Origin: a bacterium
Lineage (GTDB): Bacteria; Ratteibacteria; UBA8468; B48-G9; JAFGKM01
Reading direction: 5' to 3'
Assembly (NCBI GenBank): GCA_026414725.1
Contig: JAOAIL010000001.1
Span: forward strand, 136,249-200,248
Length of the DNA stretch: 64,000 bases
The notes below the pieces were generated by a model that saw only the letters and a list, made by a program, of their open reading frames with translations, had not been told where the DNA came from and did not search any database. This document shows, piece after piece, positions 32,878 through 52,339 of the stretch. Position numbers and translations under genes: made by a program. Position 1 is the stretch's first letter. Each line of letters opens with the position of its first letter.

Positions 32878-34644
32878 ATGGAGGATAAAGGAAAGATTGT
32901 AAAGGTGAGTGGACCACTTGTTCAGGCAGAAGGGATGAAGAGTGCAAGGATGTATGATGTTGTAAGAGTGGGGGAAGAAAAACTTATAGGAGAGATAATA
33001 CGGATAGAAGGTAATACTGTTTCTATTCAAGTATATGAAGAAACAGAAGGATTAAAGGTGGGTGACCCTGTATTTGGTACGGGAGAACCATTAATGGTAG
33101 AACTCGGACCCGGTCTTTTATCAAATATATTTGATGGAATTCAAAGGCCCCTATCAAGATTAGAAACTACAGGGGATTTCATCCTTAAGGGTGTCCAGAT
33201 ACCTGCATTAGACAGGGAGAAAAAATGGATGTTTAAACCGATAGTAAAGAAAGGAGATTTTGTTTCAGAAGGAGATATTATAGGGGAGGTTCAAGAAACA
33301 GGGATTATTGTCCATAAAATCCTTGTACCATATGGTTTTAATGGAGAAATTATTGATATAAAAGAAGGAGATTTTACTGTAGAAGAAGAGATAGGAAGAA
33401 TAAGAACAGAAGAGGGGAAAAATGTTCCCCTTTATCTTATGCAGAGATGGCCTGTTCGTGCCAAAAGGGCTGTGAGAGAAAAAAGACCTCCAGTTGAACC
33501 ACTCGTTACAGGACAGAGAGTAATAGATACTCTTTTCCCTGTAGCAAAAGGTGGGACCGCATGTATTCCTGGTCCATTTGGCTCTGGCAAAACAGTGGTA
33601 TTGCATCAAATAGCCAAGTGGGCAGATGCACAGGTGGTTGTGTATATCGGCTGTGGAGAAAGAGGAAATGAGATGGCAGATGTCCTTATAGAGTTCCCTG
33701 AATTGCAAGACCCTCAAAGTGGAAGACCTCTTATGGAGAGGACAGTTCTTATTGCGAATACATCTAATATGCCTGTTGCTGCAAGAGAAGCATCTATTTA
33801 TACAGGTATAACAATTGCAGAGTATTTCAGGGATATGGGTTATTCTGTTGCACTTATGGCTGACTCTACAAGCAGGTGGGCAGAGGCACTGAGAGAGATA
33901 TCAGGACGACTTGAGGAAATGCCTGGCGAGGAAGGATATCCTGCCTATTTAGGAACATCTGTTGCCTCTTTTTATGAAAGGGCAGGAAGATGTCTATGTC
34001 TCGGCAACAGAGAAGGTACTCTTTCCGTAATAGGTGCTGTCAGTCCACCCGGAGGAGACCTTACAGACCCTGTGGTACAGATGACACTGAAAGTAGTAAA
34101 GGTATTCTGGGGACTGGATGACCGGCTTGCTTACCAGAGGCACTTCCCTGCAATAAACTGGCTTACAAGTTATTCCCTGTATATAGAAAATCTTAAGAAA
34201 TATTCTGAAAATAATATAGCATCGGATTTTACTTCTATCAGACAGACAGCACTTTCTATACTTGAAAAGGAAGCAGAACTTTTAGAGATAGTCCGACTTG
34301 TAGGTATGGAGACACTTTCTGCACAGGACCGTCTTATCCTTGAAACCGCCAGAAGCATCAGGGAGGACTTTCTACACCAGAGTGCATTTGATGAAAGGGA
34401 TGCATATACAACACTAAAGAAACAATACAGGATGTTAAAAACTATCATACTCTTCTACCAGTATGCATCACAGGCAATTGAAAAAGGAATATCCATAGAA
34501 AAAATTCATAATCTTCATATCAGAGAAAATATCGTAAAGATGAGATATATAGCCCACTCAAAAGTAGAAGAAGAGTTTGGTAAATTAGAAACAAATATAA
34601 AAGAAGCATTCCCTACTCTCGGTATTGAGAGTAAAGTGCTATAA
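32878..34644 (+). CDS. atpA: V-type ATP synthase catalytic subunit A
   Basis: 588 aa. N-terminal beta-barrel segment, Walker [17 protein letters not shown], and typical A-subunit length. Confidence 0.9.
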
Positions 34645-36928
34645 CTGACTGACCTGCGGAGATACATCCATCATTTGTTGGAAGGTTATGGTGGCAGAAG
34701 ACAGAAAAATTGTTTTCTTGCAATTCCTTCCATACAATATCAAGTAAAAGTTTGTTCTGAAATACACCTCCTGAAAGAACCACTCTATATATCCCTCTTT
34801 CTTCTTTTATTCGTTTGCATATCCTGGTAATTATTGCTGATATAGTTCTGTGGAACTTATATGAGATTTTTTCCGTAGATATACCACTTTTTATATCATC
34901 TACAATGCTTTTTATTAAAGGCAACAGGTCTATTATTAAACTACTCTCTTCTCTTATTCCATATTTATAGGGTTTCCCCTCTGTCTTTTTTGCTATCATT
35001 TCAAGTTCTATTGCTGGCTGTGCTTCATAGGTAATGTTTTCACTTATACCAAGTATTGAAGAAACCCCATCAAAAAGACGTCCCATACTTGAGACAGGTA
35101 CACAGTTTATATCTTTCTTAAACATATCCAGTATGAATTCTGTCTTACTTCTATATCTTTCAATAAATGGGATTTTAAGATTGAAAATTTCATTACCAAA
35201 GGTTTTGTACAGCAAAGACAGCCCTATCCTCCAGACCTCCTTAATTGCCTTCTCTCCACCTGGAAGTGTTATATAGTCAAGGTAAGCATACCGCTCATAA
35301 GTTCTATAGTCAGCAATTAAAAACTCTGCCCCTCTTATATCCCCTTTTTCTCCATAACCAGTTCCGTCCAGCGCAACACCTATAACCTTTTCATTCTTAA
35401 GATTATTATCAAGCATACAAGAAGCAATATGTGCGTGGTGATGCTGAATACCTATGGTCTTCAACCCATTTCTTTTAGCCATATCCAGTGCAAACTTTGT
35501 AGGTAGATAGTCAGGATGAAGGTCATGGGCAACTATTTCCGGAGAAAAACCAAAAATTCTTACAAAGTGTTCAAATGTTTCATAATAAAAATTCAGTGTC
35601 TCTGCATCTTCCTGATTACCTGTATGCTGACTTAAAATAATACTATTATCTCTACCAAAAGCAAATGTATTCTTCTCTTCTGCTCCTGCAGCAAAGACCT
35701 CTTTTTTGAAAGAAATAGCTGTTTTTATCATATCAGGTGTATATCCCCGTGCCTTTCTTATCATATATATGTTTTTATCAGGGGCAACCCTCACCACAGA
35801 ATCATCACATCCGGTCTTTATAGGACGGTTGTTTGTAAGGATATAGTCAGAAATATAAGTAAGTTTTTCCATTTCTTTTTTGTTATCCTTGAAGATAATC
35901 GGGCTATCCGCAATATTGGCACTGGTAGCAACAACTACATCAGGGCAGTTAAAGAAAAATAGGAGGTGGTGGACAGGTGTATAAGGAAGAAAAAATCCTA
36001 AATATCTGTTAGAAGGGGCTATTTCTTCTGGAAGAGTACAATTCTCTTTTTTCTTTAAAAGAACTATGGGACTTTGCCACGAAACTAATAACTTTTTTTC
36101 TACACTACTTATAAAGCAGTATTGTTTTGCTGTTTTTATATCCTTTGCCATAAGAGCAAAAGGCTTATCTCCCCTGTTTTTTATTTCTCTTAATCTATTT
36201 ACTATCTTGCTATTTTTTGCATCACAGATAAGATGATATCCCCCTGTCCCTTTTACCGCAACAATGTATCCTTTGTTTATAAGTTCTGCGGACCTTTTTA
36301 TTGCTTCTATACCTTTTGCCAGAATCTCATCTTTAATTAAAAAAACATCAGGACCACAGACAAAACAGCAATCCGGCTGTGCATGAAACCTTCTATCAGC
36401 AGGGTTATTATATTCTTTTAGACATTCAGGACACATCTTAAATATCTTCATAGTTGTATTTTCTCTGTCATAGGGAAGTTTTTCTGTAATGGTAAACCGT
36501 GGTCCACAATTTGTGCAGTTGATAAAAGGAAACAGATATCTCCTGTCTTCAGGATTAAATAACTCTTTCAGACATTCATTACATATAGCAATATCAGGAG
36601 AAAGTTCAATTTTTATCTTTTCTGATGTATATCTACTTCCAATTATTCTGAATGTCTTTTCACTATTGATAGGATTTGTGTATATGACAGAGATTTTGTT
36701 AATATGTGCGCGAACCGGTGGGTTTCTCTTTATCTTTTCAATAAATTTTTCTATATTCTTTATAAAACCTTCTACTTCTATATATAACCCATCTGCAGTA
36801 TTACATACAAAACCAGTCAACCTGTTCTCAACAGCATACTTGAAGACAGAAGGTCTGAATCCAACCCCCTGAACCCTGCCTTCAATAAAAACCTTTACCC
36901 TTCTTTTCAGGAGTGCCATTTCTCTCAC
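34613..36928 (-). CDS. hypF: [NiFe]-hydrogenase maturation carbamoyltransferase HypF
   Basis: 771 aa. N-terminal acylphosphatase ([11 protein letters not shown]), two CxxC-x18-CxxC zinc fingers, YrdC-like and Kae1/YgjD-like C-terminal domains. Confidence 0.9.
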
Positions 36929-36953: not shown

Positions 36954-37328
36954 TTAATCCTTCTCTATAATGACCTTTTCACCTGAGCGAACCTTATTCA
37001 GTTCATTAAGGTCAGAAGTTATTTTCCCTACAACTTCAACAGAACTTGCAGGTATGGGCTTTTCTCCCTTACTTATAGGTGTTGGACCGAAGAAAAGGCA
37101 CATACATCTTCCTTCTGGCCAGTATGCAATATCACCTTTTTCTACCTCTTCCACTGGCTCATCAATTCCACTTGCTACAGGTATCTCAAAGTATATCTCC
37201 TTTCCCCATAGCCGTGCCTTTGAGGTAAATGGAAGTGCATTATAAATCTTCTCTGCCAGACCCGTATCTTTCATTATGCCTTTTACCACAATACTGCCTG
37301 CCTTTATCAGTATCTTCTTTTCCATCAT
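36954..37328 (-). CDS. small conserved protein, possibly cyclophilin-like fold (TM1367/PF04126-like)
   Basis: 124 aa. GDIAYWPEG..LCLFFG resembles the cyclophilin-like family signature; the assignment is from memory only. Confidence 0.3.
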   Translation of the reverse strand: MMEKKILIKAGSIVVKGIMKDTGLAEKIYNALPFTSKARLWGKEIYFEIPVASGIDEPVEEVEKGDIAYWPEGRCMCLFFGPTPISKGEKPIPASSVEVVGKITSDLNELNKVRSGEKVIIEKD

Positions 37329-37329
37329 C

Positions 37330-38583
37330 TCACTCCTGTAAAAGATACTTCCACAGAGGAAGATATTTTATTTCCCCTTTTATCCCGAACCACTCAACCT
37401 CTTTCTCTCCTTCATACTCATCAGTGATTATCAAAAGGTCATTACACTTCAATTCCTTGCTCGCCCTGATAAGTGCCCTCTCCTTTAATTCCACCACTTT
37501 TACATCTTTTAGATTATAACATACCTGAATAAGTTGAATAATCTCTGTACCGGACTTAAGAACAAAATCCACCTCCTGCCGTAGAGGATGCTTCCAGTAA
37601 TATACATTGGCTCCACCGTTCATTTCGTTCTTCTTAAGTTTCACTGCAACAGCATTTTCACAAAGGAATTCTGTATCTTTATTGGTATGTCCTACAAAAT
37701 GTATAAATCCATTATCTATACAGTATATCTTTTTGTTTGAACTTAATTTCTCTTCCATTTTGGGTGAAAATCTGTGGATACGGAAGAATATAAATGACTC
37801 CTCAAGGTAGTTCAGATACTTTTCTACTGTATGCACACTCTTACATTTTGTTATTCTGCTTAATGTGTTATATGAAAATTCTCTACTTACGTTTGAAAGG
37901 AGGAAAAAAGCAAGATTTTCTACAGCAGGAATAAGCCGTATTTTAAATCTTCTAACAATGTCCTTATAGATAATGGAATTAAATAATGTTGATAGATATT
38001 CTTTATGGTCTATATTTTTTATAAGTGGTTCAGGGTATCCACCATGTCTTAAATACTCATAAAGTTTTCCCCTTATTTCCTGTGTGGTAAGTTCTTTATT
38101 CTCCAACTTGAGAAATTCATTAAAGGAGAAGGGAAATATCGTCACAGATATATGCCTACCAGTAAGATGAGGAGATAGTTCACTGCTTAAGAGTTTAGAG
38201 TTGCTGCCTGTGATAACAAGGTTATATCCCTGTCTCTGAAGACGGTTGACAAATAATTCCCATTTAGGAAGGTTCTGTATTTCATCAAAAAGAACAAATT
38301 TCGGATTGTTATAGACAGAGTTTACAGCAGTTAATATTGCATCATAGTCCTTTATATCTATCAGTTTCTCATCATCAAAGTTTACATATCCAAAACTACC
38401 TGTACTGAAAAGGAGATTAAATCCGAGAAATGATTTACCTGCCCTTCTTGGTCCTGTAATCACCTTGATAAGGTCATTGGCAAGCAACCCTTTAAGCCGT
38501 TGTACCTCATCTCTTTCAATAAACCTTTCACATTTTCTTTTCTCTATTTCCCTTTTCTGCAATATCAGTGTATCTTTTATCAT
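37330..38583 (-). CDS. AAA+ ATPase with DUF4143-type C-terminal domain
   Basis: Walker A GPRRAGKS, Walker B LVLFDEIQ, then the long C-terminal region typical of the AAA_14/DUF4143 ATP-binding protein architecture. Confidence 0.65.
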   Translation of the reverse strand: MIKDTLILQKREIEKRKCERFIERDEVQRLKGLLANDLIKVITGPRRAGKSFLGFNLLFSTGSFGYVNFDDEKLIDIKDYDAILTAVNSVYNNPKFVLFDEIQNLPKWELFVNRLQRQGYNLVITGSNSKLLSSELSPHLTGRHISVTIFPFSFNEFLKLENKELTTQEIRGKLYEYLRHGGYPEPLIKNIDHKEYLSTLFNSIIYKDIVRRFKIRLIPAVENLAFFLLSNVSREFSYNTLSRITKCKSVHTVEKYLNYLEESFIFFRIHRFSPKMEEKLSSNKKIYCIDNGFIHFVGHTNKDTEFLCENAVAVKLKKNEMNGGANVYYWKHPLRQEVDFVLKSGTEIIQLIQVCYNLKDVKVVELKERALIRASKELKCNDLLIITDEYEGEKEVEWFGIKGEIKYLPLWKYLLQE

Positions 38584-38719: not shown

Positions 38720-39856
38720 TTATCTACATAGTTCACAGGAAATATAATTTATAATTTTCCTTATAGCATCTTCAACTTCAATGGACAACTCTTCAGAAAG
38801 GGTTATTTTTTTAGGCTGTATACCTATAACTTTACAGTTTGCACCTATTTCTCTATGTATATGTTTTAAAATCAATGTAAGAGAGATACTGTGTGTGGAT
38901 GGTGTTGTCTCTTCTATCTGGTCATACTCAATCACCTTTATCTCTCCTGGTTTTCCTCCAAAATCCACAGCATCTATAACAACCACTGTATTAGGTCTGA
39001 ATTTTTCAATAACACCTATATAGTTCTCCACAGAACTCCCTGCATCAATAATTTTTACATCCTTCCTTTTTATTATCTTTGTAAGTTTTTCTGTAACAAT
39101 AGAACCAGCGCCATCATCCGCTTTCAGGCGGTCTCCCATCCCAATAATAACAATTCTCCCTTCCCATGTGAGTGATATTGTTTCCGGTTGCTCAATAATC
39201 CGATTTAAAGTAAAATCAGATAGTGTTTTTATCCAGTCAGAAATCCCTTCTCCTGTCCTTATTGAAAGAGGTATGAGTTTAGCAGATGATATATCTTTAA
39301 GATACTTTTTGAATACACTTAAATTAAAATCTGTATGTGGCATAAGGTCTATCTTGTTAAGAATACATACATCTGCTCTCTTAAACATTAGGGGATACTT
39401 CAGTGGTTTATCTTCTCCTTCCGACACACTTGATACCACCACATTTAAAGATGTACCTATATCAAATTCAGCAGGGCACACTAAGTTTCCTACATTTTCT
39501 ATAAACACAATATCTGTTTCTTTAAGAGAAATTTGTGTAAATCCTTTTTTTACCATAAAAGCATCCAGATGACAAGCACCACCTGTGTTTATCTGTACTA
39601 CAGGGATATCTAATCTCGCTATCCTTTCCGCATCAATACACCCTTTTATATCCCCTTCTATTACACTGAATGAGAATCTGCTTTTCAGTTCGGATATGGT
39701 CTTTTCAAGCAAGGAGGTTTTTCCGGAACCAGGGGAACCCATAACATTAACAGCAAATGTACCGCTTTCATTTAATAATATACGGTTTTCTTCTGCAATT
39801 CTCTCATTCTCTTCAAATATGCTTGTACCTACCTCTATTATTTTTATTTCTTTCAT
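38720..39856 (-). CDS. hypB: fusion of hydrogenase Ni-insertion GTPase HypB and hydrogenase maturation endopeptidase (HycI/HybD-like)
   Basis: N-terminal E.NR....E.G....NVMGSPGSGKTSLLEKT ... CH.D (HypB G-domain and Ni/Zn site). Then one continuous frame into RIVIIGMGDRLKADDGAGSIV ... VIDAVDFGGKPGEI (maturation protease signature). No stop between the two. Confidence 0.7.
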   Translation of the reverse strand: MKEIKIIEVGTSIFEENERIAEENRILLNESGTFAVNVMGSPGSGKTSLLEKTISELKSRFSFSVIEGDIKGCIDAERIARLDIPVVQINTGGACHLDAFMVKKGFTQISLKETDIVFIENVGNLVCPAEFDIGTSLNVVVSSVSEGEDKPLKYPLMFKRADVCILNKIDLMPHTDFNLSVFKKYLKDISSAKLIPLSIRTGEGISDWIKTLSDFTLNRIIEQPETISLTWEGRIVIIGMGDRLKADDGAGSIVTEKLTKIIKRKDVKIIDAGSSVENYIGVIEKFRPNTVVVIDAVDFGGKPGEIKVIEYDQIEETTPSTHSISLTLILKHIHREIGANCKVIGIQPKKITLSEELSIEVEDAIRKIINYISCELCR

Positions 39857-39917
39857 TTTATATATTATAAACAACAATTAATTTTTTTGTTAATTATATA
39901 TCTTTAAAAAAACACCT

Positions 39918-40181
39918 TCAAACATTTTCTTCTATCTCCACATTCTCCAGTATAAATTCTTTAGAGGATGGGTTTTCACTCCTCCTTATATATATTTTTA
40001 CATTTTTATAAAAGGGGTTATCCTTTGTAAGGGCATGGAAAGTAAAGTTTATATTTTCTTCATCTATGCAACTTAAAGGATTAACAGTAAGGTTTATTCT
40101 ATGGAATGCAGAGATATTTCGCTCTTTTCTAATTTTTTCAAGAATCTCTAAAATTTTTTGGCTTATAGATAATTCATGCAT
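39918..40181 (-). CDS. hypA: HypA-like hydrogenase Ni-metallochaperone lacking the CxxC...CxxC zinc finger
   Basis: Starts MHELSISQKILEIL (canonical HypA Ni-binding MHE motif). Only 88 aa with a single Cys. Confidence 0.55.
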   Translation of the reverse strand: MHELSISQKILEILEKIRKERNISAFHRINLTVNPLSCIDEENINFTFHALTKDNPFYKNVKIYIRRSENPSSKEFILENVEIEENV

Positions 40182-40236: not shown

Positions 40237-40590
40237 TTATTCTTTATCAATATCTATAGTAGGTCTTGGTTTTGCAGGATATATCTTCTCATCACCAGGT
40301 TTTTCCCATATCTTGATACCTGATATATCTGCTGCCCTCGCGAGTGCATGTGCTGCAGTAGGTGAGTTTAAAAATAGAAATACAAGACATATAAGTGCTT
40401 TCATCCCTATAGCAGAAAATCCGGTTTTTATTATAGTAGCTAAAAGGACACTCCCTGTACCGAGTGTTACACACTTTGTAGCTGCCTGTAGACGACAGTA
40501 TACATCAGGCATCCTTAAAAGTCCGATACATCCGAGAAGGACAAAACATAATCCAATAGCCATAACTATATAGAAAAGAATATCAATCAT
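40237..40590 (-). CDS. Mrp/Mnh antiporter subunit G-like (MbhC-like)
   Basis: 117 aa, 3 TM. GLLRMPD.Y.RL.A.TK is the MnhG signature. Confidence 0.7.
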   Translation of the reverse strand: MIDILFYIVMAIGLCFVLLGCIGLLRMPDVYCRLQAATKCVTLGTGSVLLATIIKTGFSAIGMKALICLVFLFLNSPTAAHALARAADISGIKIWEKPGDEKIYPAKPRPTIDIDKE

Positions 40591-40837
40591 CTAAATTCCT
40601 CCCTTCTAAGAACTTTGCAAGTGTGATAGTACTTACAAATCCTATAATAGACCAGGCAATGGCTATACTCATATACCACTCTGAACCGGTTGCAAGAGAA
40701 AGGAACACACAGAATATAATTATAATAATACCGAGTATATCAATAGCCACCATTCTATCTGCTGCTCTCGGACCTCTAAATACTCTATAGACACATATAG
40801 ATACACATAAAGCAAGAAAAGCGAATACAAGAATCAT
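40583..40837 (-). CDS. Mrp/Mnh antiporter subunit F-like (MbhB-like)
   Basis: 84 aa, 3 TM. Y R...GP...DR..A.D signature. Confidence 0.6.
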   Translation of the reverse strand: MILVFAFLALCVSICVYRVFRGPRAADRMVAIDILGIIIIIFCVFLSLATGSEWYMSIAIAWSIIGFVSTITLAKFLEGRNLDD

Positions 40838-41319
40838 TCAAATACCTCCTTCAATATCTTCTGGGCCTTTCCACATATTAACTCTTCTGCCTTTATAGGA
40901 TCTGTCGTTTCAACATATATCCAGTGGACATATAAAAACTCTTCATCTATATCCATAGTAAATGTTCCAGGAGCAAGCGTTATGGAATTTGCCAGTATAA
41001 TCCTTCCAAGTGGTGATTTAAGATATAATGGTATCTTTACAACACCTGGCTTGATAGGAGGTCCCGGACTTAAGATACGATATGCCATAATAAAGTTTGC
41101 CTTTATCATCTGCCAGATAAATACAAAGATGAACTTTACAAAAGCAAAATATCGTCTTATCTGGAATGTATGTTCAGGATGATATGGAAATTCTCTTCCA
41201 TAAAGAAGTGTGACGAAAAGAGAAACCAGAATACCTGCAATATAATTACCTGGTTCATTGCTCCATGTTAAAATCTTCCATATACCAAACAAAAGTATAA
41301 AAACAATAAGGTAGTTCAT
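40834..41319 (-). CDS. Mrp/Mnh antiporter subunit E-like (MbhA-like)
   Basis: 161 aa, N-terminal 2 TM plus soluble domain. Position in an Mrp-order gene string. Confidence 0.55.
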   Translation of the reverse strand: MNYLIVFILLFGIWKILTWSNEPGNYIAGILVSLFVTLLYGREFPYHPEHTFQIRRYFAFVKFIFVFIWQMIKANFIMAYRILSPGPPIKPGVVKIPLYLKSPLGRIILANSITLAPGTFTMDIDEEFLYVHWIYVETTDPIKAEELICGKAQKILKEVFE

Positions 41320-42802
41320 CTGTTCTCTCCTATTTTAATATCCATATAGGAAAAACTCTCCATAACAGATACAGACCTATCCAGTGTTTTTTCTCTTATA
41401 CCAGGAATAAGTAATATCCCTGATATAAATACCAGTATTGCAAGAACTACCATAGGGAAAAGAAGTGTTTTTGGTGCTTCTTGTTTTATTGGCTCTTCAA
41501 CTCTGTTGTAATAAACATTCCTCTGTAATTTAAGGAAATACCCCAGAGTAATAATAGATACAACAATACATAAAACCGCTATTCCTGGATAACCTGCCTG
41601 CACTGCTGCAATTATTATGATAAGTTTACTCCAGAAATTACCCATAGGAGGTACACCTGCAATACCTAACATTCCTGTACTCCCTAAAAGTGTTGTTACA
41701 GGCATCTTATCATTCAGTCCTTTTAATTGTTCCATATCTGTAGAACCTGTAACATATTCAATAGCTCCTATATTTAAGAAAAGAAGTGCCTTTGAGAATG
41801 CATGTGCAATAAAATGCATAAGTACACCCAGATTCCCCAGATATCCGCCTATACCCAATCCTATAGCACAGTATCCAATCTGACTTATGGTTGAGTATGC
41901 ATAAAGTCGTTTTATATTTCGCTGTCCATATGCCATAAGTCCTCCGAAAACCATTGACAATATTCCGAATAGTAAAAGCAACAGATTCTTATCTGAGGCA
42001 ATATTATAAATATATTGTTGGTAATCCGTATGAGCACATAAAGTCCTATAACTTTTATGAACATACCTGAAAGTATGGCAGAAATAGGTGCAGGTGCCAT
42101 AGAATGTGCATCAGGTAACCATGTATGAAAAGGTACAAGAGCGGCCTTAAGCGCAAAACCAGATAAGAGAAGTCCTGCAAGGAACCAGAGATGTGAGGTA
42201 GAAAGCCCTGCGGTCTCAGACATAAATGTTGCTATGTTAAGTGTCCCTGTAAATCCGTAGATAAGTGCAATAGCAAAAAGTATCATTGTAGAAGCAATAA
42301 AACTCATGACCGTATATTTCATTGATGCCTCAAGTTCCTCTGCTCTAAGTCCAAAAGCTACAAGAATAAAGGATGCAATTGATGCAATTTCAAAGAAGAC
42401 ATATATGTTGAATATATCCATACTGATAAGCACACCATTCATACCTGCAAGCATAATCAGAAAAATAATATAAAAATAGGATGTCTCTGTATATTTCCTT
42501 ATATAAACAAACGAGTATATCATTATAAGAAGGGCAATAAAATTTGTCATTATAATGAATAAAGAAGAAAGAGGGTCAACCATAAGAACTATGCCTAATG
42601 GTTTTTCCCAGCCACCTACAAAATATACAATTCTTCCATTGGTAAATACATCTATACCAAAAATTATTGATGTTATAGTAGCAAGTAAGACAAAAGATAT
42701 CGCTACTATCCCGGCGGACTTTTCATCTTTCCTTAAAAGTAGAGATATGAGAAATCCAGCCCCCAAATATATTGCCACAGGAAGAATAATAAGATTGTTC
42801 AT
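41316..42802 (-). pseudogene. NuoN/MrpD-like antiporter subunit split by an apparent frameshift near 41912-41981
   Basis: ORF 41912..42802 encodes the N-terminal 280 aa of a NuoL/M/N-fold protein, then runs into an atypical tail (...CCFYYSEYCQWFSEDLWHMDSEI). ORF 41316..41981 in another frame encodes the conserved C-terminal part (NIKRLYAYSTISQIGY...). Together about 495 aa. Confidence 0.55.
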
Positions 42803-43149
42803 CCTTTCAATCTCCTTATCTTATCCATATCAAAAGTTTCATATTTTTCAAAAAGCCGTATGGCAAGTGCTGCAAGAAATGCAACAAATGCAAGGTCTAT
42901 GACAATTGATGTAAGAACAAGTGCCTGTGGTAATGGGTCCACCGCTTTTTCTAAAAAAGTGTTGACCGTCATATTTTCTGTAAGGATAGGCGCAATCCCA
43001 TCCCATTTATAACCTAAAAGTACAAATATAATATTGGTAGCATACCCAACAATATTTATTCCTACAATAATTTTTATGATGTTTTTCTTTGCAATAATTC
43101 CATAAAGTCCTGTAAAAAACATCAGGGCAACAAGTATATAGACAATCAT
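42799..43149 (-). CDS. NuoK/MrpC-like small membrane subunit
   Basis: 116 aa, 3 TM. ...KNIIKIIVGINIVGYATN... like NuoK/MnhC. Confidence 0.65.
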   Translation of the reverse strand: MIVYILVALMFFTGLYGIIAKKNIIKIIVGINIVGYATNIIFVLLGYKWDGIAPILTENMTVNTFLEKAVDPLPQALVLTSIVIDLAFVAFLAALAIRLFEKYETFDMDKIRRLKG

Positions 43150-43622
43150 TTTTCTTCCTCCATACTCTGTTTATATTTAATCCCTTCATCTGTTCTTATT
43201 AACCGTGCCATAGAAAGAATTGCTATGGCAACAAATAGTGCGGAAGCAACCTTCAGACCTATCATTATATTACTGATTATAATTGTTCCTGCACTCCATA
43301 GTTTGAACATATTCCCTTTAGGAAGCAGGTTATAGAAAAATACACCTCCTGCCAGTCCAGATATAGCAACTGCAAGAAAACCCAATGCACCTGCACTGTC
43401 AAGGGATTTTGTAACATTTATAGGTAAGAATCTGAAAACATATTCCTTTCCAAAGGCAAGAAGAAGCAGAACAACTCCACCTGTGAGAACTACTCCACCT
43501 GAAAAGCCACCGCCTGGTGTAATATGCCCATAGAGGACAAGAGACAATCCATAAAGAACTATAAAAGGAAATACAATTCTCGCTATACCCTGAACAATCT
43601 CACTCATTCCATTATTTTTCAT
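43146..43622 (-). CDS. MrpB/MnhB-like membrane subunit
   Basis: GHITPGGGFSGG motif characteristic of MnhB-domain proteins. Confidence 0.55.
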   Translation of the reverse strand: MKNNGMSEIVQGIARIVFPFIVLYGLSLVLYGHITPGGGFSGGVVLTGGVVLLLLAFGKEYVFRFLPINVTKSLDSAGALGFLAVAISGLAGGVFFYNLLPKGNMFKLWSAGTIIISNIMIGLKVASALFVAIAILSMARLIRTDEGIKYKQSMEEEK

Positions 43623-44145
43623 CCTTCCTCCCCTTTACCCTTAAGAGCACTACAACCCCTGCTATCGCTGTAAATATAACGGTTGCCTCTCCTAATGTAT
43701 CATATCCTCTAAAGTCCAGCACTATCGCAGTTACAGTATTAGGTGCCTTCAGAAGAGAAGGAGATGCCTTTAGATATTCTGCCCCCATAGTGATTACCGG
43801 CTGTCCAAAAGGTCTGACAACCTCGGTTCCATGGATCATAAAAACAAACAGGAATAATGCCAGAACTATCAGAGTTACCACCCCGTACAATCCAGATGTG
43901 GACATATCTGCTCTCGTTTCACGCCTTATTGTAGAAAGGAGTATAATCAAAGCCACTATCTCTACAAAAACCTGAACAATTGCTATATCAGGTGCTCCCA
44001 AAAGTAAAAACAGAATACTTAATATAAGTCCCGCAGTTCCCATAGAAACAACAGACGATGTCAAACTCCTTGCTACAATAGATATAACACACCCCACTGT
44101 CATAAGAAGCATCAACACAATTAAAAGTGGTGTATTAAGCATCAT
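43612..44145 (-). CDS. MrpA C-terminal/MnhB-like membrane subunit (MbhD/E-like)
   Basis: AIVLDFRGYDTLGEATVIFTAI motif (MnhB domain). GGAGG RBS 10 nt before ATG 44145, which overlaps the upstream stop (ATGATGA). Confidence 0.55.
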   Translation of the reverse strand: MMLNTPLLIVLMLLMTVGCVISIVARSLTSSVVSMGTAGLILSILFLLLGAPDIAIVQVFVEIVALIILLSTIRRETRADMSTSGLYGVVTLIVLALFLFVFMIHGTEVVRPFGQPVITMGAEYLKASPSLLKAPNTVTAIVLDFRGYDTLGEATVIFTAIAGVVVLLRVKGRKDEK

Positions 44146-45968
44146 CTTCTTATAACCTCCATTATAATTATAAGCCCTGCAAAAAACCATACAAGATACT
44201 TTGCTAAAAGTCCATTCTGTAATAACTTTAGCCGTTCAACCCATAGATTTAAAAATAAACTTCCTCTGTTATATATAAAATCAACTGCCATTACAGCGAT
44301 ATTGATAAAAAACTTCCCAGCATTAGGCAGTAATTTCAGAAAATTCTGGTATATATCAAGCAATCCCATGGTATCAAGTGTATAAAATTTTTTAAGAGGT
44401 GTTATTTCTTTAACCGTCCCATAGAAGTGCGCTCCATCAAAAGCAGTTATCTTATCAGAAATAACCTCGCCCCCTACAAATACCTCTGTCCTTCTCACCT
44501 GTTTAATCCATCTCCTACCTACGACAAATAACAAAGCAAGGATGATGATTGCCAGCACTCCATAATAAGAAGCCATCTGTATGAGATTAATATTTAGCAT
44601 TACATATTCACCTATAGCAGGGAATAAAAACTTCTCTGTCACAAATCCAGGATATAAACCAAAAAGTAAACACCCAATAGCAAGTAATATCATAGGTATA
44701 TTCATAAAAGGACTACCCTCTAATTTTTCTCCTGTTATCTCTTTTTTCCTTACACCCATAAAGGAGTCATTAATAACCTTTACAAAAGATGCAAGTGTTA
44801 ACACACTTCCTAAAAGTGCTGCAATGAATGCAAATGTAGAAATAGGATTGTTCTTTATTAGAAGTGCCTGATATATAATCCACTTTGATACAAAACCATT
44901 AAAAGGTGGTATCCCTGATATTGAAAATGCTGCAACTGTCATTACCATAAATGTAACTGGTAGTTTCCTGAATAATCCGCCATAATCCTCTAAATTCCTT
45001 GAACCAGTTGCTTTTATAAGTACCCCCGCACCGAGGAAGAGTAAACTTTTGAATATAGCGTGGTTGATTGTGTGATAAAGAGCTCCGACAAGTCCTATCT
45101 GGGTTCCACAGGCAATACCGAGAAAGATATATCCAATCTGACTGATACTATGATATGCAAGAAGTCGTTTTATATCATGCTGGATAAGTGCTAAAAAAAC
45201 ACCTCCCAAAAGTGTAAAGATACCGAGAAGCAACATTACTGTCTCCCATCCGATAGACCATGATGGTTTGAATATAACAAAGTAAAAGCGTATCAGTGCA
45301 TATATCCCTGTTTTACTCATTGCACCAGAAAACAATGCAGATATAGGTGTTTGAGCAGAAGTATATGCATCAGGAAGCCATGAGTTAAGCAGGAATATCC
45401 CCACTTTGACACCTGTCCCTAAAAGGATAGAAAAGAAAAATATATGTTTCCATAAAAGATTTTCTTCTAATAGCCATATTCCTAATATCCCGAAAAGTAG
45501 AAATATACTTCCTACACCTGTCATAATAATATATTTAAGAGAAGCACTTCTTGCCTCATCTGTATCAGCGAAAAGTACAAGAAAGAAACTTGCTATTGTC
45601 ATTATTTCCCAGTATATATACAGAGCAATGAGTGAATGGGAAAGTACTACACCCAACATACCCCCGAGAAAGAGGAATAACAACCCATCATATACAAAGT
45701 TTACTTCCGAATTGTACCACTGAGAAAAAGATACACTGCACAATCCTATGAAAGAAATAAGTATTGCGAATAAGAGTCCGAGTTTCTCTCCACTGGAAAG
45801 AATGTCATAGTTTACATACATTGAATAGAAACATGAAAACAGCACTGCCAGAACCCCAAGGAGAGATACCCACTTCCTTATATTCCTTCCTGCCCCCTGA
45901 ATAAGCAGATGAACGAAAGCAATCCCGAAGCTTATAACAACCGGAAGAAACCATATGTTTACATTCAA
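44142..45968 (-). CDS. NuoL/MrpA-like antiporter subunit (MbhH-like)
   Basis: 608 aa, about 16 TM. Conserved ...WLPDA.....P.SAL..... and HAFFKSLLF-type blocks of complex-I antiporter-like subunits. Confidence 0.75.
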   Translation of the reverse strand: MNVNIWFLPVVISFGIAFVHLLIQGAGRNIRKWVSLLGVLAVLFSCFYSMYVNYDILSSGEKLGLLFAILISFIGLCSVSFSQWYNSEVNFVYDGLLFLFLGGMLGVVLSHSLIALYIYWEIMTIASFFLVLFADTDEARSASLKYIIMTGVGSIFLLFGILGIWLLEENLLWKHIFFFSILLGTGVKVGIFLLNSWLPDAYTSAQTPISALFSGAMSKTGIYALIRFYFVIFKPSWSIGWETVMLLLGIFTLLGGVFLALIQHDIKRLLAYHSISQIGYIFLGIACGTQIGLVGALYHTINHAIFKSLLFLGAGVLIKATGSRNLEDYGGLFRKLPVTFMVMTVAAFSISGIPPFNGFVSKWIIYQALLIKNNPISTFAFIAALLGSVLTLASFVKVINDSFMGVRKKEITGEKLEGSPFMNIPMILLAIGCLLFGLYPGFVTEKFLFPAIGEYVMLNINLIQMASYYGVLAIIILALLFVVGRRWIKQVRRTEVFVGGEVISDKITAFDGAHFYGTVKEITPLKKFYTLDTMGLLDIYQNFLKLLPNAGKFFINIAVMAVDFIYNRGSLFLNLWVERLKLLQNGLLAKYLVWFFAGLIIIMEVIRR

Positions 45969-45978
45969 CTTTCTCCTC

Positions 45979-47346
45979 CTATCTTATCACCAGCATAATA
46001 CCGAATAATAATGAAATAGTTGCTAAAATTACCACAGAGACAACCATAAAGGGAAATCCTTTCCCTGTTGTATCTACTTCTTTTACATCCCCCATAAATA
46101 CATACCTGAATAAACGAACCATATAAAGAAGGGTTAGTGCTGATGTAAGTATTGCAATAAGCCCATAGAATATATGTCTCTTTATAAGCATACCTGTTAT
46201 TGCCTCAAGTTTTCCATAAAAACCAGGTAATGGTGGAATACCTGCAACAGAAAACATACTGAAGATAAAAGCATATGTAACAAGCGGTGATTTTTTCATC
46301 AACCCTCCCATCTGCCTTATATCTTTTGTCCCAAATAGTTTTTCTGTAATTCCTGCACATAGAAATAGACATCCCTTACCCAGTGCATGTGCTACATAAA
46401 ATATAACAATTCCACGAGTAGCAATAGGATTAAACATCATAAGCCCTGCTATCATAAATCCTAACTGGCTTACTGTGGAAAAAGCAAGAATTTTTTTAAT
46501 ATCTGTCTCTCTTAAAGCAATAATACCCGCAGCAACACTGCTGAATAGAGCAAGATATCCTGCCCATATAACATTTCCAGATACAGTAAGCGTTGCCCCG
46601 AAAATCCGCGCTAGTCCATATACTCCTATCTTAACAAGTACTGCTGCGTGAAGGAATGATGTAACAGGTGTTGGGGCTACAGAGGCATCAGGAAGCCATG
46701 TATGGAAGGGGAAAGTGGCTGACTTTGTTAGAATCCCTAAAAATATTAGTGCAAAGACAAAAGGAGGTATCTCCTGCCCTATTATCTGAGAAATACTTAG
46801 AGAACCAGTAGTTATGTAAACATATACAAATCCCAGAAGCATAAAACCAGCTCCTGCACTGGTAATAAGGAATGCTTTATCTGCCTTAAGGAGATGTTCA
46901 TCTTTCCTGTAGAAACCAATAAGTTTCCACGAGCAAAGCCCCGCAAGTTCCCAGAAAAGATAAAGGGAGATGAGATTATCAGAAAATACCACCCCCATCA
47001 TACTCCCCACAAAAACAAGTCCCCAGAAAGAAAATTTTTGCTGTTCAGAATGATCTTCTTTAGCAAAATACCCCATTGCAAACAAATATATAAATATCCC
47101 TATAAAAACAGAAGTCGCTCCAAATATAAAACTTAAAGGGTCGGCAATAAAAAAGATGTTTTCTACTGGATAATATAAGAACCTTGTAGAAAATACAGTA
47201 TTAGCAATATTACCTAATAGAAACATCTGTATCAGGAGGAAAATAAAACCTGCTTTAATAGAAAACGATGCAGGTATAACCTCCACTAAAACCGCTGATA
47301 GAAATGGAACTATAAGTATCCACAACAAGATATTATTCGGTACCAT
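45979..47346 (-). CDS. NuoM/NuoN/MrpD-like antiporter subunit
   Basis: 455 aa. HTWLPDA..APTPV..... and ..HA..K..LF blocks. Confidence 0.7.
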   Translation of the reverse strand: MVPNNILLWILIVPFLSAVLVEVIPASFSIKAGFIFLLIQMFLLGNIANTVFSTRFLYYPVENIFFIADPLSFIFGATSVFIGIFIYLFAMGYFAKEDHSEQQKFSFWGLVFVGSMMGVVFSDNLISLYLFWELAGLCSWKLIGFYRKDEHLLKADKAFLITSAGAGFMLLGFVYVYITTGSLSISQIIGQEIPPFVFALIFLGILTKSATFPFHTWLPDASVAPTPVTSFLHAAVLVKIGVYGLARIFGATLTVSGNVIWAGYLALFSSVAAGIIALRETDIKKILAFSTVSQLGFMIAGLMMFNPIATRGIVIFYVAHALGKGCLFLCAGITEKLFGTKDIRQMGGLMKKSPLVTYAFIFSMFSVAGIPPLPGFYGKLEAITGMLIKRHIFYGLIAILTSALTLLYMVRLFRYVFMGDVKEVDTTGKGFPFMVVSVVILATISLLFGIMLVIR

Positions 47347-47351
47347 AATAT

Positions 47352-47969
47352 TTATTTTCCCTTTTTCTCATCACTTATAAACGCAAGCCGTCTACATTTG
47401 GGACAGACAACTTTTAATAAATCTGTCCTCTGTATAGGTGGAATAACTTTTTCTTCAAAATCAGTTTTTATATTAAACATCTCCATAAGTTGCATAAGAA
47501 GAACTGGCTGTGCAAATCCTAAATTCCCGAGTTTTTTTAATACCCATTGAAGATGTTTTTCAGTACCTATAACCGTTCTGCAGTGTATACATGTGATAAG
47601 TTTATGTTCCACAGAATCAAGTGTATCCTGTTCATTAAAATATGCAATATCAAATTTTGTTGTAAGTTTAATCCCCTCACCTGTGATGCAATTTCTTTCA
47701 CACTCCCTACAGAATATACATCTTGATGGATACTGTATCAATACTCTTTTAGCAATACCATTTTCCAAAGTATCTTTCATATCAATTGCTTTTGCAGGAC
47801 ATACCTGAAAGCATGCCCCACAACCCACACAGATATCCTTATTATATTCTGGTTTTCCCCTGTATCTTAAAGGAGGTGTATGCGGTTTATAAGGAAAGTC
47901 GGTTGTATATGGCTTTGATAATATTCCTTTAACCGCCTCTTTCAGTTCTCTTATCTTGGGTTTCTTCAT
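47352..47969 (-). CDS. NuoI-like 2x[4Fe-4S] ferredoxin subunit (MbhN/HycF-like)
   Basis: C.GCGAC...CP and C..C..C...CP cluster motifs in a 205-aa protein next to the large subunit. Confidence 0.7.
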   Translation of the reverse strand: MKKPKIRELKEAVKGILSKPYTTDFPYKPHTPPLRYRGKPEYNKDICVGCGACFQVCPAKAIDMKDTLENGIAKRVLIQYPSRCIFCRECERNCITGEGIKLTTKFDIAYFNEQDTLDSVEHKLITCIHCRTVIGTEKHLQWVLKKLGNLGFAQPVLLMQLMEMFNIKTDFEEKVIPPIQRTDLLKVVCPKCRRLAFISDEKKGK

Positions 47970-47971
47970 AT

Positions 47972-49165
47972 TTATATCTCTCTTTTAATCTTTTCTGTCT
48001 TCTCTATAGATTTCTTTAAAAGATAATCAAAGTCGTAAAGTTTTCTTCTATTTTCTGCCTCATAGACAGCCACCCTTTCCGTACAACAATAACAGGGGTC
48101 AACACCTGCTAAAATTATCGCTACATCTGCTATGGTCTGTCCTATACAACTTGCTTTAAACGTAGGTATATTGGTATAACTCGGTGCTCTTATTTTATGT
48201 CTCACAGGTCTATTTGTCCCATCACTTCTAACATAGTGAAAACATTCTCCCCTCGGTGCCTCATGGCGTCCTATACCTTCTCCTTCAGGTATACTCCTTA
48301 CCTCTGCCTGTATCTCTCCTTTTTTCCCTTCAATTGCATCAAGACACTGCTCTATTATTTTTATTGATTCAAAACTTTCTAACAACCTAACCACTGCTTT
48401 GTCAAATACATCACCATTCTCTGTAGTAATTATTTTCCAATCAACAAGTTGATATGCAGCATATGGGTCATCCTTTCTTATATCTATTGCAACACCACTT
48501 GCCCTTGCAATAGGACCTACTGCACCAAATGCCTTTATATGTTCTTTTGTAAGAACACCTACCCCTTTAAGCCGTGCTGCGAGAACAGGGTCATCCAGAA
48601 CTGCACCTGTAAGCATCTCTAACTGTCCTTTGAGTTCAGAAAGTACCTTTCTCAGTTTAGGAATATCTTCATTCTCTATATCTCGGCGTACTCCACCAAT
48701 TTTGAACATTGCATAATGATTTCTGTTTCCTGTTATTATTTCAAACATATCAAGTACCGGTTCCCTGTATTTCCATGCCCACATAAACACGGTATTATAT
48801 CCGAGGAAGTGCCCAGCCAGTCCTACCCAGAGCAGATGACTGTGAAGTCGTTCAAGTTCTCCTATAACACTTCTTATATACCTTGCTCTTTCAGGCACTG
48901 TTATCCCGAGAAGGTCCTCCACTGCATTACAGTATGCAAACGGATGCGATGTGGAACATATACCACATATTCTTTCAACCAAAAATGTTACCTGGTCCCA
49001 GTGTTTACTTTCTGAAAGCTTTTCTATTCCACGGTGGTTATAGCCCGCCTGCCATTCTACATCCACAACTTTTTCTCCATCACAATAAAGAGCAAAAAAC
49101 TCTGGTTCTTCAAGAAGTGGATGATACGGACCTATTGGAACTATCACTTTTCTTTTATGTTCCAT
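47972..49165 (-). CDS. group 4 [NiFe]-hydrogenase large (catalytic) subunit, NuoD-like
   Basis: N-terminal L1 motif ERICGICSTSH. C-terminal L2 motif DPCYCCTER followed by a 33-aa extension (substrate for a HycI-type protease). About 400 aa as in Ech/Mbh/Hyc large subunits. Confidence 0.9.
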   Translation of the reverse strand: MEHKRKVIVPIGPYHPLLEEPEFFALYCDGEKVVDVEWQAGYNHRGIEKLSESKHWDQVTFLVERICGICSTSHPFAYCNAVEDLLGITVPERARYIRSVIGELERLHSHLLWVGLAGHFLGYNTVFMWAWKYREPVLDMFEIITGNRNHYAMFKIGGVRRDIENEDIPKLRKVLSELKGQLEMLTGAVLDDPVLAARLKGVGVLTKEHIKAFGAVGPIARASGVAIDIRKDDPYAAYQLVDWKIITTENGDVFDKAVVRLLESFESIKIIEQCLDAIEGKKGEIQAEVRSIPEGEGIGRHEAPRGECFHYVRSDGTNRPVRHKIRAPSYTNIPTFKASCIGQTIADVAIILAGVDPCYCCTERVAVYEAENRRKLYDFDYLLKKSIEKTEKIKREI

Positions 49166-49592
49166 AGTTTTCTTTCCTTAATGGATAATTTCCTTTCTCC
49201 CAGTCATCTCTTAAGAGGAAATGTTTAATATCAGGATGTCCTGTAAAGTTTATCCCTAAAAGTTCCCACATCTCACGTTCAATGTAAGAGATACCTGGAA
49301 TAATATCAATAAGTGTTTCTATTTCTGGTTTTTCCTTATCAAGATACACCCTTAAAGAAACAATAATACCTTCTTTATCAAGACCGAAATGATAGAGAAT
49401 CTCAAAACTGTCAAAATTTTCTATTCCTGATGCGATAATATATCTTGCATCAATATCTTTAAAGATAATTCTTGCACACTCCTTGATATCTTTTCTGTCA
49501 ACTGTAATATAAATCCGCTGGTTTTTATGGATATTTATATCTTTAATCCTATTCCCGAGTTTTTCTTTCAACATTCCTGTTATATCTCTCAT
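49155..49592 (-). CDS. NuoC-like (30-kDa) hydrogenase subunit
   Basis: 145 aa with the ...ERE..... / F.GHP......L-type NuoC blocks. ATGA overlap with the small subunit. Confidence 0.65.
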   Translation of the reverse strand: MRDITGMLKEKLGNRIKDINIHKNQRIYITVDRKDIKECARIIFKDIDARYIIASGIENFDSFEILYHFGLDKEGIIVSLRVYLDKEKPEIETLIDIIPGISYIEREMWELLGINFTGHPDIKHFLLRDDWEKGNYPLRKENYGT

Positions 49593-50005
49593 TTCAGTTT
49601 CTCCAGAACCTTTACTATACCTGCAATCATTGCCTCTGGTTTTGGTGGACACCCTGGTATATAAACATCTACAGGTATAAGTTTATCAATAGGACCTCCC
49701 ATCTGATATCCATCTCTAAAGATACCGCCTGTACAGGCACATGCCCCTATAGCTACAACAATACAGGGTTTTGCTGTTTGTTTATACACTTCTCTTAACC
49801 TTTCAACACATTTTTTATTCACTATCCCTGTACACAAAAGAACATCTGCATGTCTCGGACTTCCTACGAGTACAATACCAAACCTTTCAATATCAAACCT
49901 CGGTGTGAGACAGTCAAGGATTTCTATATCACAGTTATTACATGACCCACCTGACACATGATAAACCCATAGTGATTTTTTTAATGCCTTCGTTTTTATA
50001 TTCAT
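49589..50005 (-). CDS. group 4 [NiFe]-hydrogenase small subunit, NuoB-like
   Basis: GGSCNNCDIE...C...GACACTGG...GCPP is the proximal-cluster cysteine pattern of NuoB/EchC/MbhJ. AGGAGAG RBS before ATG 50005. Confidence 0.8.
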   Translation of the reverse strand: MNIKTKALKKSLWVYHVSGGSCNNCDIEILDCLTPRFDIERFGIVLVGSPRHADVLLCTGIVNKKCVERLREVYKQTAKPCIVVAIGACACTGGIFRDGYQMGGPIDKLIPVDVYIPGCPPKPEAMIAGIVKVLEKLK

Positions 50006-50073
50006 ATCTTTATCTCTCCTGCATTCTATTTTCCTCTCTCCATACAAGAAGGAAAGGGAGAGGATGAAATTTT

Positions 50074-51003
50074 TCACCACCCTGTCATTGCCAGAAATAT
50101 CCCCGCTATTCCTAATAAGGTAAACCATCCCCAGAAAAGCCGTAGTGTCTGGTCTATCCTTAACCGGGGATTGGTATTCTTAATAAGTATAAAAAGAATA
50201 AGTATAATAACATATTTAAGTATTCCTGTTATAATACCTGCAATGGAACTAAAACTTATTCCTCCTAAATATAAAGATATAAGAAATAACGGACCGGTAA
50301 TAATCAGTATTGCCTTTGTAAGTTTATATAATCCCAGTAGTATACCTGAATACTCAATAAGTGCCCCACCTGCCAACTCTCCCTCTGCCTCCGCAAGGTC
50401 AAAAGGTACCAACCCTAACTTCCCCTGTAATGCAAAAACCCCTATGATAAAGCCAACAATTCCAGAAGGAGAATCAAGTATTATCCCGCTATGCTGTTGA
50501 AACTGGATTATATTACCGAGTGAAGTTGTTAAACCACTTTTTATAGATGAAATAACCAATCCACAAACAAAAGGAAGTTCGTATCCCATAAGTAATTTCA
50601 TCTCCCTGCTTATTCCTACTGCCGCTAAGACATTACCTGAGGCACTCCCACCGAGTATGATTGAAAGAGAAGGTATGGTAAGCAGATAAAGAATAAGTAT
50701 AGCATCCGTAGGGAAACCTGCATTTGTCTTAAATATCATTATTAAAATTGCTCCTGCTGTTGTGGTAGCTATTAATCCGAGTACCGGTGCTGTAATAAAC
50801 ATAAAGATATTTGCTTTTTCTGGTATCAGAACCTCTTTACCTGCAAGTTTTACAAAATCAGCAAAGTTTTGGTACCATGGAGGACCTATACGAAACTGTA
50901 GCCGTGCTGTAACTTTTCTATCCAGCCACATAGCCATAAATCCCAATATACCAAAGGATATTAAAACCCCTATAAAGTATAGAAGTATGGATAAATTACT
51001 CAT
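50074..51003 (-). CDS. NuoH-like membrane subunit (MbhM/HycD/EchB-like)
   Basis: DRK..AR.Q.R.GP motif near the N-terminus, 8 TM. ATG 51003 overlaps the upstream stop (ATGA); an alternative TTG start is at 51030. Confidence 0.8.
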   Translation of the reverse strand: MSNLSILLYFIGVLISFGILGFMAMWLDRKVTARLQFRIGPPWYQNFADFVKLAGKEVLIPEKANIFMFITAPVLGLIATTTAGAILIMIFKTNAGFPTDAILILYLLTIPSLSIILGGSASGNVLAAVGISREMKLLMGYELPFVCGLVISSIKSGLTTSLGNIIQFQQHSGIILDSPSGIVGFIIGVFALQGKLGLVPFDLAEAEGELAGGALIEYSGILLGLYKLTKAILIITGPLFLISLYLGGISFSSIAGIITGILKYVIILILFILIKNTNPRLRIDQTLRLFWGWFTLLGIAGIFLAMTGW

Positions 51004-51491
51004 TTTTTTATTCCGTATGTATCCAGCCAATTGAAGACCTTTACAACTATATGCTCTCCAATTTGATATATATTGGTTTTATCCTTAATATCTCTTTCAT
51101 CTAAATAACTTATGGCACCACTTTTACAGGTTTTTACACAGAGAGGTTCTTCTCCTTCTTTCAACCGCCCGATACAAACATCACACCTGCTTACAAGATA
51201 TGGTATCAGTTCTTGTAATATCGTTCCGAAAGGACAGGCAAGTGAACAGGTCTTACAGGATACACAAATGATATTTGAACGTTTTACCCTGCCTTCCTCT
51301 CTTTTTAATGCACCTGTCGGACAACTATTCACACAGGGATAGTCCTCACATCTTCTGCATGCAAAAAGGAATGCAATCTCTTCTCTTAAAGCAGATATTC
51401 CTCTATTTTCTGGATGCATCTTATAACTGCATCTTATACCTTCATCCTGAAGAGTCAGAAATTTATCATAATCAATAAAGAGCTTCTTCAT
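51000..51491 (-). CDS. HycB-like polyferredoxin (multiple 4Fe-4S binding motifs)
   Basis: C..C.DYPC...CP, C..C..C.LACP and C..C......EPLC..TC cysteine arrays. GAGGT RBS 7 nt before ATG 51491. Confidence 0.65.
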   Translation of the reverse strand: MKKLFIDYDKFLTLQDEGIRCSYKMHPENRGISALREEIAFLFACRRCEDYPCVNSCPTGALKREEGRVKRSNIICVSCKTCSLACPFGTILQELIPYLVSRCDVCIGRLKEGEEPLCVKTCKSGAISYLDERDIKDKTNIYQIGEHIVVKVFNWLDTYGIKK

Positions 51492-51501
51492 AACTTTAAC
51501 C

Positions 51502-52332: not shown

Positions 52333-52339
52333 TTTATAC

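Follow-up and report, generated by a model that had tools for sequence, protein, structure and literature searches.

A HypB and HycI-type protease fusion encoded with an Mrp-Mbh-type hydrogenase: a probable bifunctional maturation factor

In the window (the whole stretch of 64,000 nucleotides that was analysed, with a GC content of 36%), a single open reading frame encodes the GTPase and nickel metallochaperone HypB joined to a HycI-type [NiFe]-hydrogenase maturation endopeptidase. HypB and the maturation endopeptidases are textbook families, and by its sequence the window protein belongs to each. Comparison with its relatives, which confine it largely to a small set of uncultivated bacteria where it is conserved, confirms the fusion as genuine and evolutionarily fixed, with no assembly error involved. 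Quite probably the product is a bifunctional maturation factor for the Mrp-Mbh hydrogenase encoded upstream, in which nickel insertion is coupled to C-terminal cleavage.

The frame occupies 38720..39877 of the minus strand (a preliminary description of this DNA was silent on the strand), has no internal stop, and ends with a stop codon at 38720-38722. Counted from the start codon furthest upstream, a TTG at 39877, it encodes 385 aa. However, the true start is probably the ATG at 39856, giving 378 aa, since the N-termini of homologues read MKKIK. In the 385-aa numbering the Pfam matches are to cobW at residues 43-199 (E 1.7e-22) and to HycI at residues 261-379 (E 1.5e-21). The preliminary description had claimed a HypB and a HycI/HybD-type protease in one frame; by Pfam and NCBIfam both domains are complete, and every motif it quoted (GSPGSGKTSLLEKT, GGACH, GMGDRLKADDGAGS, DAVDFGG) is present. 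The gene and its parts, in the 378-aa numbering used from here on, are:

38720..39856, minus strand: fused gene hypB::hycI, 378 aa plus stop, with its ATG at 39856
39197..39856, minus strand: HypB GTPase/nickel metallochaperone domain, aa 1-220
39155..39196, minus strand: inter-domain linker, aa 221-234
38723..39154, minus strand: HycI-type [NiFe]-hydrogenase maturation endopeptidase domain, aa 235-378

The HypB half scores 246 bits against the NCBIfam hypB model TIGR00073, for which the equivalog cut-off is 121.2. It carries a P-loop (GSPGSGKT), EGD, GGAC95H96, ENVGNLVC127P and N167KxD170. An alignment of 28 fused sequences shows the GTPase motifs (G40-S41-P42-G43-x-G45-K46-T47 and N167-K168-x-D170) to be invariant, as is E67-G68-D69, and they align with those of the closest solved structure, M. 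jannaschii HypB (2hf8, E 1.9e-47). Invariant too is the Cys-His...Cys metal site of the G domain, within G92-G93-A94-C95-H96 and E120-N121-V122-G123-N124-L125-x-C127-P128, whose residues align with the CH and C of the M. jannaschii protein. The N-terminus, MKEIKIIEVGTSIFEEN, is without cysteine and so has no CxxCGC nickel site, and there is no His-rich stretch in this half. Since the aligned region of 2hf8 likewise has no CxxCGC site, its absence does not exclude HypB membership. An N-terminal high-affinity site of this kind is a feature of the E. coli type and is not universal among HypB proteins, which work as GTP-dependent dimers.

That the C-terminal half is a maturation protease, as had been proposed, is borne out by profile, structure and metal-ligand residues. 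The match to PF01750 is 77 bits against a cut-off of 23, and that to the hydrogenase maturation protease model TIGR00072 is 105.8 bits against 47.45. The stricter HycI equivalog model, TIGR00142, gives 111.1 bits, slightly under its cut-off of 119.1, so that membership of the superfamily is firm and the HycI subfamily label approximate. The structures matched are those of T. kodakarensis HycI (5zby, E about 6e-23 to 3.3e-22) and E. coli HycI (2e85 and 2i8l). The motifs are GMGD, D247-D248-GAG, D295 (in DAVDF) and S-T-H322, within which G241-D242, D247-D248, D295 and T321-H322 are invariant in the 28 sequences. D248, D295 and H322 align with Asp16, Asp62 and His90 of E. coli HycI, the metal ligands of that protein. 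The identity of the two domains and the intactness of their motifs are direct observations.

The extreme C-terminus has a feature of its own. An ...ELC(R/K) ending or a close variant of it (38723..38740 of the minus strand in the window) is present in 11 of the 28 aligned fusions, which constitute the closest subgroup; variants are ...GLCR in P0009 and ...ELCSL in P0003. More distant fused members do not have it.

All genes from 53347 down to 34613 are on the minus strand, and those relevant to the context of the fusion are:

40237..51030, minus strand: 13 structural genes of an Mrp-Mbh-type membrane hydrogenase
47972..49165, minus strand: group-4 [NiFe]-hydrogenase large subunit, the presumed substrate, 397 aa (PF00346 and PF00374)
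47975..48073, minus strand: C-terminal extension of the large subunit, VAVYEAENRRKLYDFDYLLKKSIEKTEKIKREI, 33 aa after DPCYCCTER
39918..40181, minus strand: short hypA, 87 aa from MHE, 61 nt upstream of the fusion
37330..38583, minus strand: ATPase with AAA_14 and DUF4143, between the fusion and hypF
36954..37328, minus strand: cyclophilin-like protein (PF04126), between that ATPase and hypF
34613..36928, minus strand: hypF, 771 aa, downstream of the fusion

The structural genes specify MnhG/F/E, an MrpD-like subunit (frameshifted here), a NuoK-like subunit, MnhB and MbhD/E, followed by two more antiporter-like subunits, a ferredoxin-like protein, the large subunit, a NuoC-like subunit, the small subunit and a NuoH-like subunit. 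A NuoD-like large subunit with L1/L2 Cys motifs, NuoB/C/H-like subunits and Mrp antiporter-like subunits in one operon place the enzyme in group 4 (Mrp-Mbh); the finer label 4g is one given to Omnitrophota enzymes, in a study reporting group-4g Mbh plus Mrp (PMC8542988). The large subunit contains RICGICSTSH and DPCYCCTER. Its C-terminal extension was noted in the preliminary description, and the gene is indeed 8-9 kb from the fusion on the same strand, with the tail conserved in related loci: the large subunits of L081 and L083 bear one of the same kind. A presumed substrate, with DPCYCCTER and a 33-aa tail, is directly observable nearby, and the predicted site of cleavage is after R364 of DPCYCCTER. 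In E. coli, HycI cuts HycE after Arg537, with release of 32 aa (PMC7654741).

The context is conserved as well as the fusion, and both are plainly observed. Loci L081 and L082 (fused protein 62% identical) and L083 and L084 (51%) have the order Mrp-Mbh genes, a hypA of 85-89 aa, fusion, and their structural genes are arranged as in the window. The short HypA of the window matches only positions 1-66 of the 112 in the PF01155 profile, and its TIGR00100 score of 37.6 bits is under the cut-off. The N-terminal MHE nickel motif is kept and the entire Cys4 zinc-finger domain is missing. Its Zn-less orthologues in L081, L083, L084 and L089 have 85-90 aa, and the literature search found no published description of such a HypA. 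Short HypA genes elsewhere are at 9739-9996 in L081, 9742-10011 in L083, 5739-6011 in L089, 10407-10748 in L003 and 10479-10763 in L058. The Zn-less form (85-94 aa) adjoins both fused and unfused hypB, and there is a similar one in an Acidobacteriota MAG.

Several neighbouring genes deserve mention in their own right. The AAA_14 plus DUF4143 ATPase is also found at 11713-12984 in L083 and 6151-7407 in L084, where the fused protein is only 51% identical. The cyclophilin-like protein is found at 11104-11469 in L083, 5527-5892 in L084 and 7196-7567 in L087; in L083 and L084 the order of the two genes is swapped relative to the window. The cyclophilin-like gene recurs beside hypB or the fusion in three contexts, of which L087 has no hydrogenase genes within the locus fetched. 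By analogy with the prolyl isomerase SlyD, which works with E. coli HypB, its product could be a maturation accessory. Three genes at 51000..53347 of the minus strand, immediately upstream of the Mbh-like genes, constitute an Fe-S/flavin module: a Fer4_22 protein (335 aa), a FAD/NAD-binding protein (276 aa) that includes a DHODB-type Fe-S domain, and a Fer4_11 protein (174 aa). The module resembles sulfhydrogenase beta/gamma subunits or AsrAB proteins, and its sequences suggest NAD(P)H-linked electron input to the group-4 hydrogenase. The gene for the MrpD-like subunit (41316..42802, minus strand) consists of two overlapping frames of 296 aa and 221 aa due to a 2-nt insertion, with the break at about 41969-41984 and outside any homopolymer run. 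Its orthologues are intact single genes (494 aa in L081, 501 aa in L083). The break may reflect either a hydrogenase that is decaying or inactive in this host, or a local sequence error.

In the mechanism proposed, Ni(II) would reach the large-subunit precursor through the joint action of the HypB half and the neighbouring short HypA, in a step that depends on GTP. The tethered protease half would then recognise the nickel-loaded precursor, cut after Arg364 of DPCYCCTER and free the 33-aa tail. A flexible tether would keep the protease where nickel is inserted, in a 1:1 ratio to HypB, and would thereby couple the two steps physically. That each half is active, that nickel insertion comes first and that there is any kinetic benefit are deductions from sequence.

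Among the alternatives, the one that survives best, though it is unlikely, is that the protease half serves chiefly for docking or as a chaperone, recruiting HypB or keeping the precursor open, with cleavage secondary or absent. Published work suggests that maturation proteases can bind tail-less large subunits and may do more than cleave (PMC7654741). Further, P0240, a member of a second fused clade, has neither the CH motif of HypB nor the protease His and nevertheless retains the fused fold. However, none of the three metal-ligand positions varies among the 28 sequences of the clade to which the window protein belongs (clade 1), the large subunit retains a conserved HycE-like tail that needs to be removed, and the window contains no other protease gene to remove it; neither a second hypB nor a second protease homologue was found there. 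These features favour a protease half that would cleave, as in the coupled maturation factor.

The linker is the part of the protein in which conservation is least. Mean pairwise identity, 0.67 in the HypB domain and 0.57 in the HycI domain, falls to 0.26 in the linker; the spacing between W208 and G241, both invariant, ranges from 21 to 38 residues across the family. Such a pattern is typical of two domains, each kept by purifying selection, with a tether between them that tolerates change. The AlphaFold2 model computed from the 28-sequence alignment (mean pLDDT 84.8, pTM 0.57) has two well-folded domains, with low confidence at residues 221-232 (block mean 55, and pLDDT below 50 at 221-225). 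The low confidence there and the pTM point to the absence of a fixed orientation between the domains.

A poorly conserved linker with predicted disorder, whose DNA includes a purine-rich stretch, GGGAAGGGAG, is also what might be expected if one frame gave rise to two proteins, by internal initiation or by linker cleavage, with no physical coupling. This is very improbable. The purine-rich stretch codes for conserved W/K-G-R residues, and from the end of HypB to M239 there is no in-frame ATG, GTG or TTG. M239 itself is within the conserved GMGD strand, which across the family reads G[MLI]GD, and so the Met is not conserved. With no start codon in the linker and M239 not conserved, internal initiation is unlikely to yield a separate full-length protease.

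A search of 5.8 billion proteins yielded about 27 full-length fused homologues of 362-392 aa, each with both Pfam domains in a single frame and 48-71% identical to the window protein; the preliminary description had called for a search for the architecture in related genomes. The sources of these homologues are MAGs at NCBI, where the label is Candidatus Omnitrophica or Ratteibacteria, and assemblies from JGI, ENA and Logan, with unlabelled metagenomes among the sources. Existing NCBI and JGI names for them are only 'hydrogenase nickel incorporation protein HypB'. Though a neighbouring gene in the window does have a frame-breaking 2-nt insertion, and the overlapping hypB and hycI of the closest unfused relatives could be joined by one indel, a lost stop or frameshift at the junction that falsely joined two genes in sequencing or assembly is extremely improbable, as these homologues share the single frame across different assemblies and pipelines, with identical fused proteins in separate NCBI and Logan, and also JGI and ENA, assemblies.

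The likely origin of the fusion can be seen in its unfused relatives. A tree of the HypB domain places a few unfused HypBs as the sister group of the fused clade; among them is P0044, which is in an Mrp-Mbh context (L089 and L090). The order in these two loci is a short hypA (90 aa), hypB (220 aa, 6001-6663), hycI (156 aa, 6650-7120), hypF, hypC, hypD and hypE. They share with the loci of the fusion an Mrp-Mbh operon, a short hypA without the zinc-finger domain and the order of genes, and identity to the halves of the fusion is 54% for HypB and 38% for HycI. The difference is that hypB and hycI are separate, overlapping genes, the inferred ancestral state. This arrangement can be observed directly: the last 14 nt of hypB are also the first 14 nt of hycI, read in another frame (...AATAAATGGAGAAACTTGA...). 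Met1 of the stand-alone L089 HycI (MEKLEDIKKYLKGRIVIVGIGD) aligns to residue 221 of the fusion (IEQPETISLTWEGRIVIIGMGD), the HypB alignment runs to residue 215, and the linker, aa 221-234, aligns with M1-R14 of the stand-alone protein. Alignment from Met1 of HycI implies that the fusion comprises a whole HypB and a whole HycI, with the linker made of the HypB tail and the N-terminal leader of HycI. Most likely a single indel in the 14-nt overlap, by removing the stop codon, created the fusion.

Derivation of the fused protease from the stand-alone protease of the unfused Omnitrophota locus L003 found no support: the two share just 32% identity, and the genes are arranged differently. The L089-type arrangement explains the origin better. 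A search with the protease domain alone, which did not list the full-length fusions again, gave few candidates, with the nearest stand-alone HycI at most 46% identical.

The architecture is rare. Against 1.84 billion representatives of clusters made at 50% identity, the 28-sequence profile matched 1,163 proteins at E <= 1e-30, nearly all of them HypB alone. Among the best 150 of these only three have the HypB-protease architecture: the P0006 cluster, which spans the whole profile; P0121, a fragment that crosses the junction; and P0240, with both domains. The last has one fused homologue, P0269, which shares 58% identity with it and was sequenced in a separate run. In P0269 the protease is of HyaD/HybD type (TIGR00140, 161.8 bits against a cut-off of 151.8). 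At its locus, L086, a group-1-like large subunit that ends in DPCMACSTH and a further 24 aa is encoded along with a cytochrome b, a CopZ-like protein, HypA at its full length of 112 aa, the fusion itself and HypC. As in clade 1, HypB is N-terminal, the protease is C-terminal and the gene directly follows hypA. In contrast to clade 1, the protease subfamily is another one, the hydrogenase is group-1-like with a cytochrome b, and HypA is full-length.

In the HypB domain each fused clade has an identity of 0.60-0.61 to unfused HypBs and of 0.48-0.52 to the other fused clade, and the two group together in 0 of 100 bootstraps. Because each is closer to unfused HypBs and the two never group together, the HypB-protease fusion appears, from these sequences, to have arisen at least twice, with the same N-to-C order and different protease subfamilies; the second clade consists of two short contigs, one member of which, P0240, has degenerate motifs. 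In P0240 (L085, 631-1863) the Cys-His motif of HypB is lost (the sequence reads QINTEREHLEA), as is the protease His, and the P-loop and the fold are kept. The gene adjoins DUF3793 and flavodoxin genes, with no hydrogenase, and may be a degenerate or repurposed paralogue.

Other candidates proved not to be fusions of this kind. In four loci from GTDB species representatives outside this clade that matched both halves by tblastn (L003 from Omnitrophota, L008, L018 and L058) the genes are separate and the protease gene is upstream of hypB. The order is protease-hypA-hypB-hypF in L003, L008 and L058, and L018 has no hypA between protease and hypB. L029 has a HypB whose N-terminal extension is spurious. 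The long HypB outliers P0128, P0144, P0156, P0199 and P0212 have other extra domains or none, and no protease. Rare putative C-terminal additions to HypB are a SAM methyltransferase in P0144 (452 aa), an SLT transglycosylase in P0212 (407 aa) and HVO_A0114 in P0128 (354 aa).

The two-domain architecture is already visible in precomputed Pfam annotations of public proteins. No description of a HypB-HycI fusion was found in a full-text literature search, confined largely to papers outside subscription journals, and the Omnitrophota hydrogenase paper (PMC8542988) does not mention maturation genes. Since database records name the fusions just HypB, the genomes that carry them seem to have no maturation protease. 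As HypB and the endopeptidase are usually separate and act at consecutive steps, a conserved and apparently twice-evolved fusion is Rosetta-stone-type evidence of a physical link between them. It is also a natural single-chain construct for a question that is open in the field, whether the protease has a role beyond clipping the tail; that it might bind the precursor before or during nickel insertion is an example of the role at issue (PMC7654741). A broader reading can be offered tentatively. Nickel insertion and proteolysis might normally occur inside one transient complex of HypA, HypB, protease and precursor; the protease would be docked during GTP hydrolysis by HypB, with GTP-dependent release of nickel licensing cleavage; and the fusions would be frozen snapshots of it, with the Zn-less HypA part of a remodelled minimal machine for nickel delivery. 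Whatever the merit of this broader reading, a compact HypA/HypB-HycI module could help heterologous expression of Mbh-type hydrogenases.

In E. coli, nickel is the last component of the cofactor to be inserted, by HypA and HypB, after which the C-terminal peptide is cut off by an endopeptidase dedicated to the task (PMC7654741). Both activities are predicted for the window in that same order, and the cut after the Arg of DPCxxCxxR in HycE (PMC7654741) has its predicted counterpart there. However, E. coli HypB and HycI are separate proteins, whereas the window encodes one polypeptide. Its HypB half does not have the N-terminal CxxCGC site of the E. coli protein and resembles the minimal archaeal type. 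E. coli hydrogenase-3 is part of formate hydrogenlyase, while the window hydrogenase is of Mrp-Mbh type; the 33-aa tail of its large subunit closely parallels the 32-aa tail of E. coli HycE. The best structure matches for the two halves, M. jannaschii HypB (2hf8) and T. kodakarensis HycI (5zby), are both stand-alone proteins. T. kodakarensis HycI also serves an Mbh-type hydrogenase.
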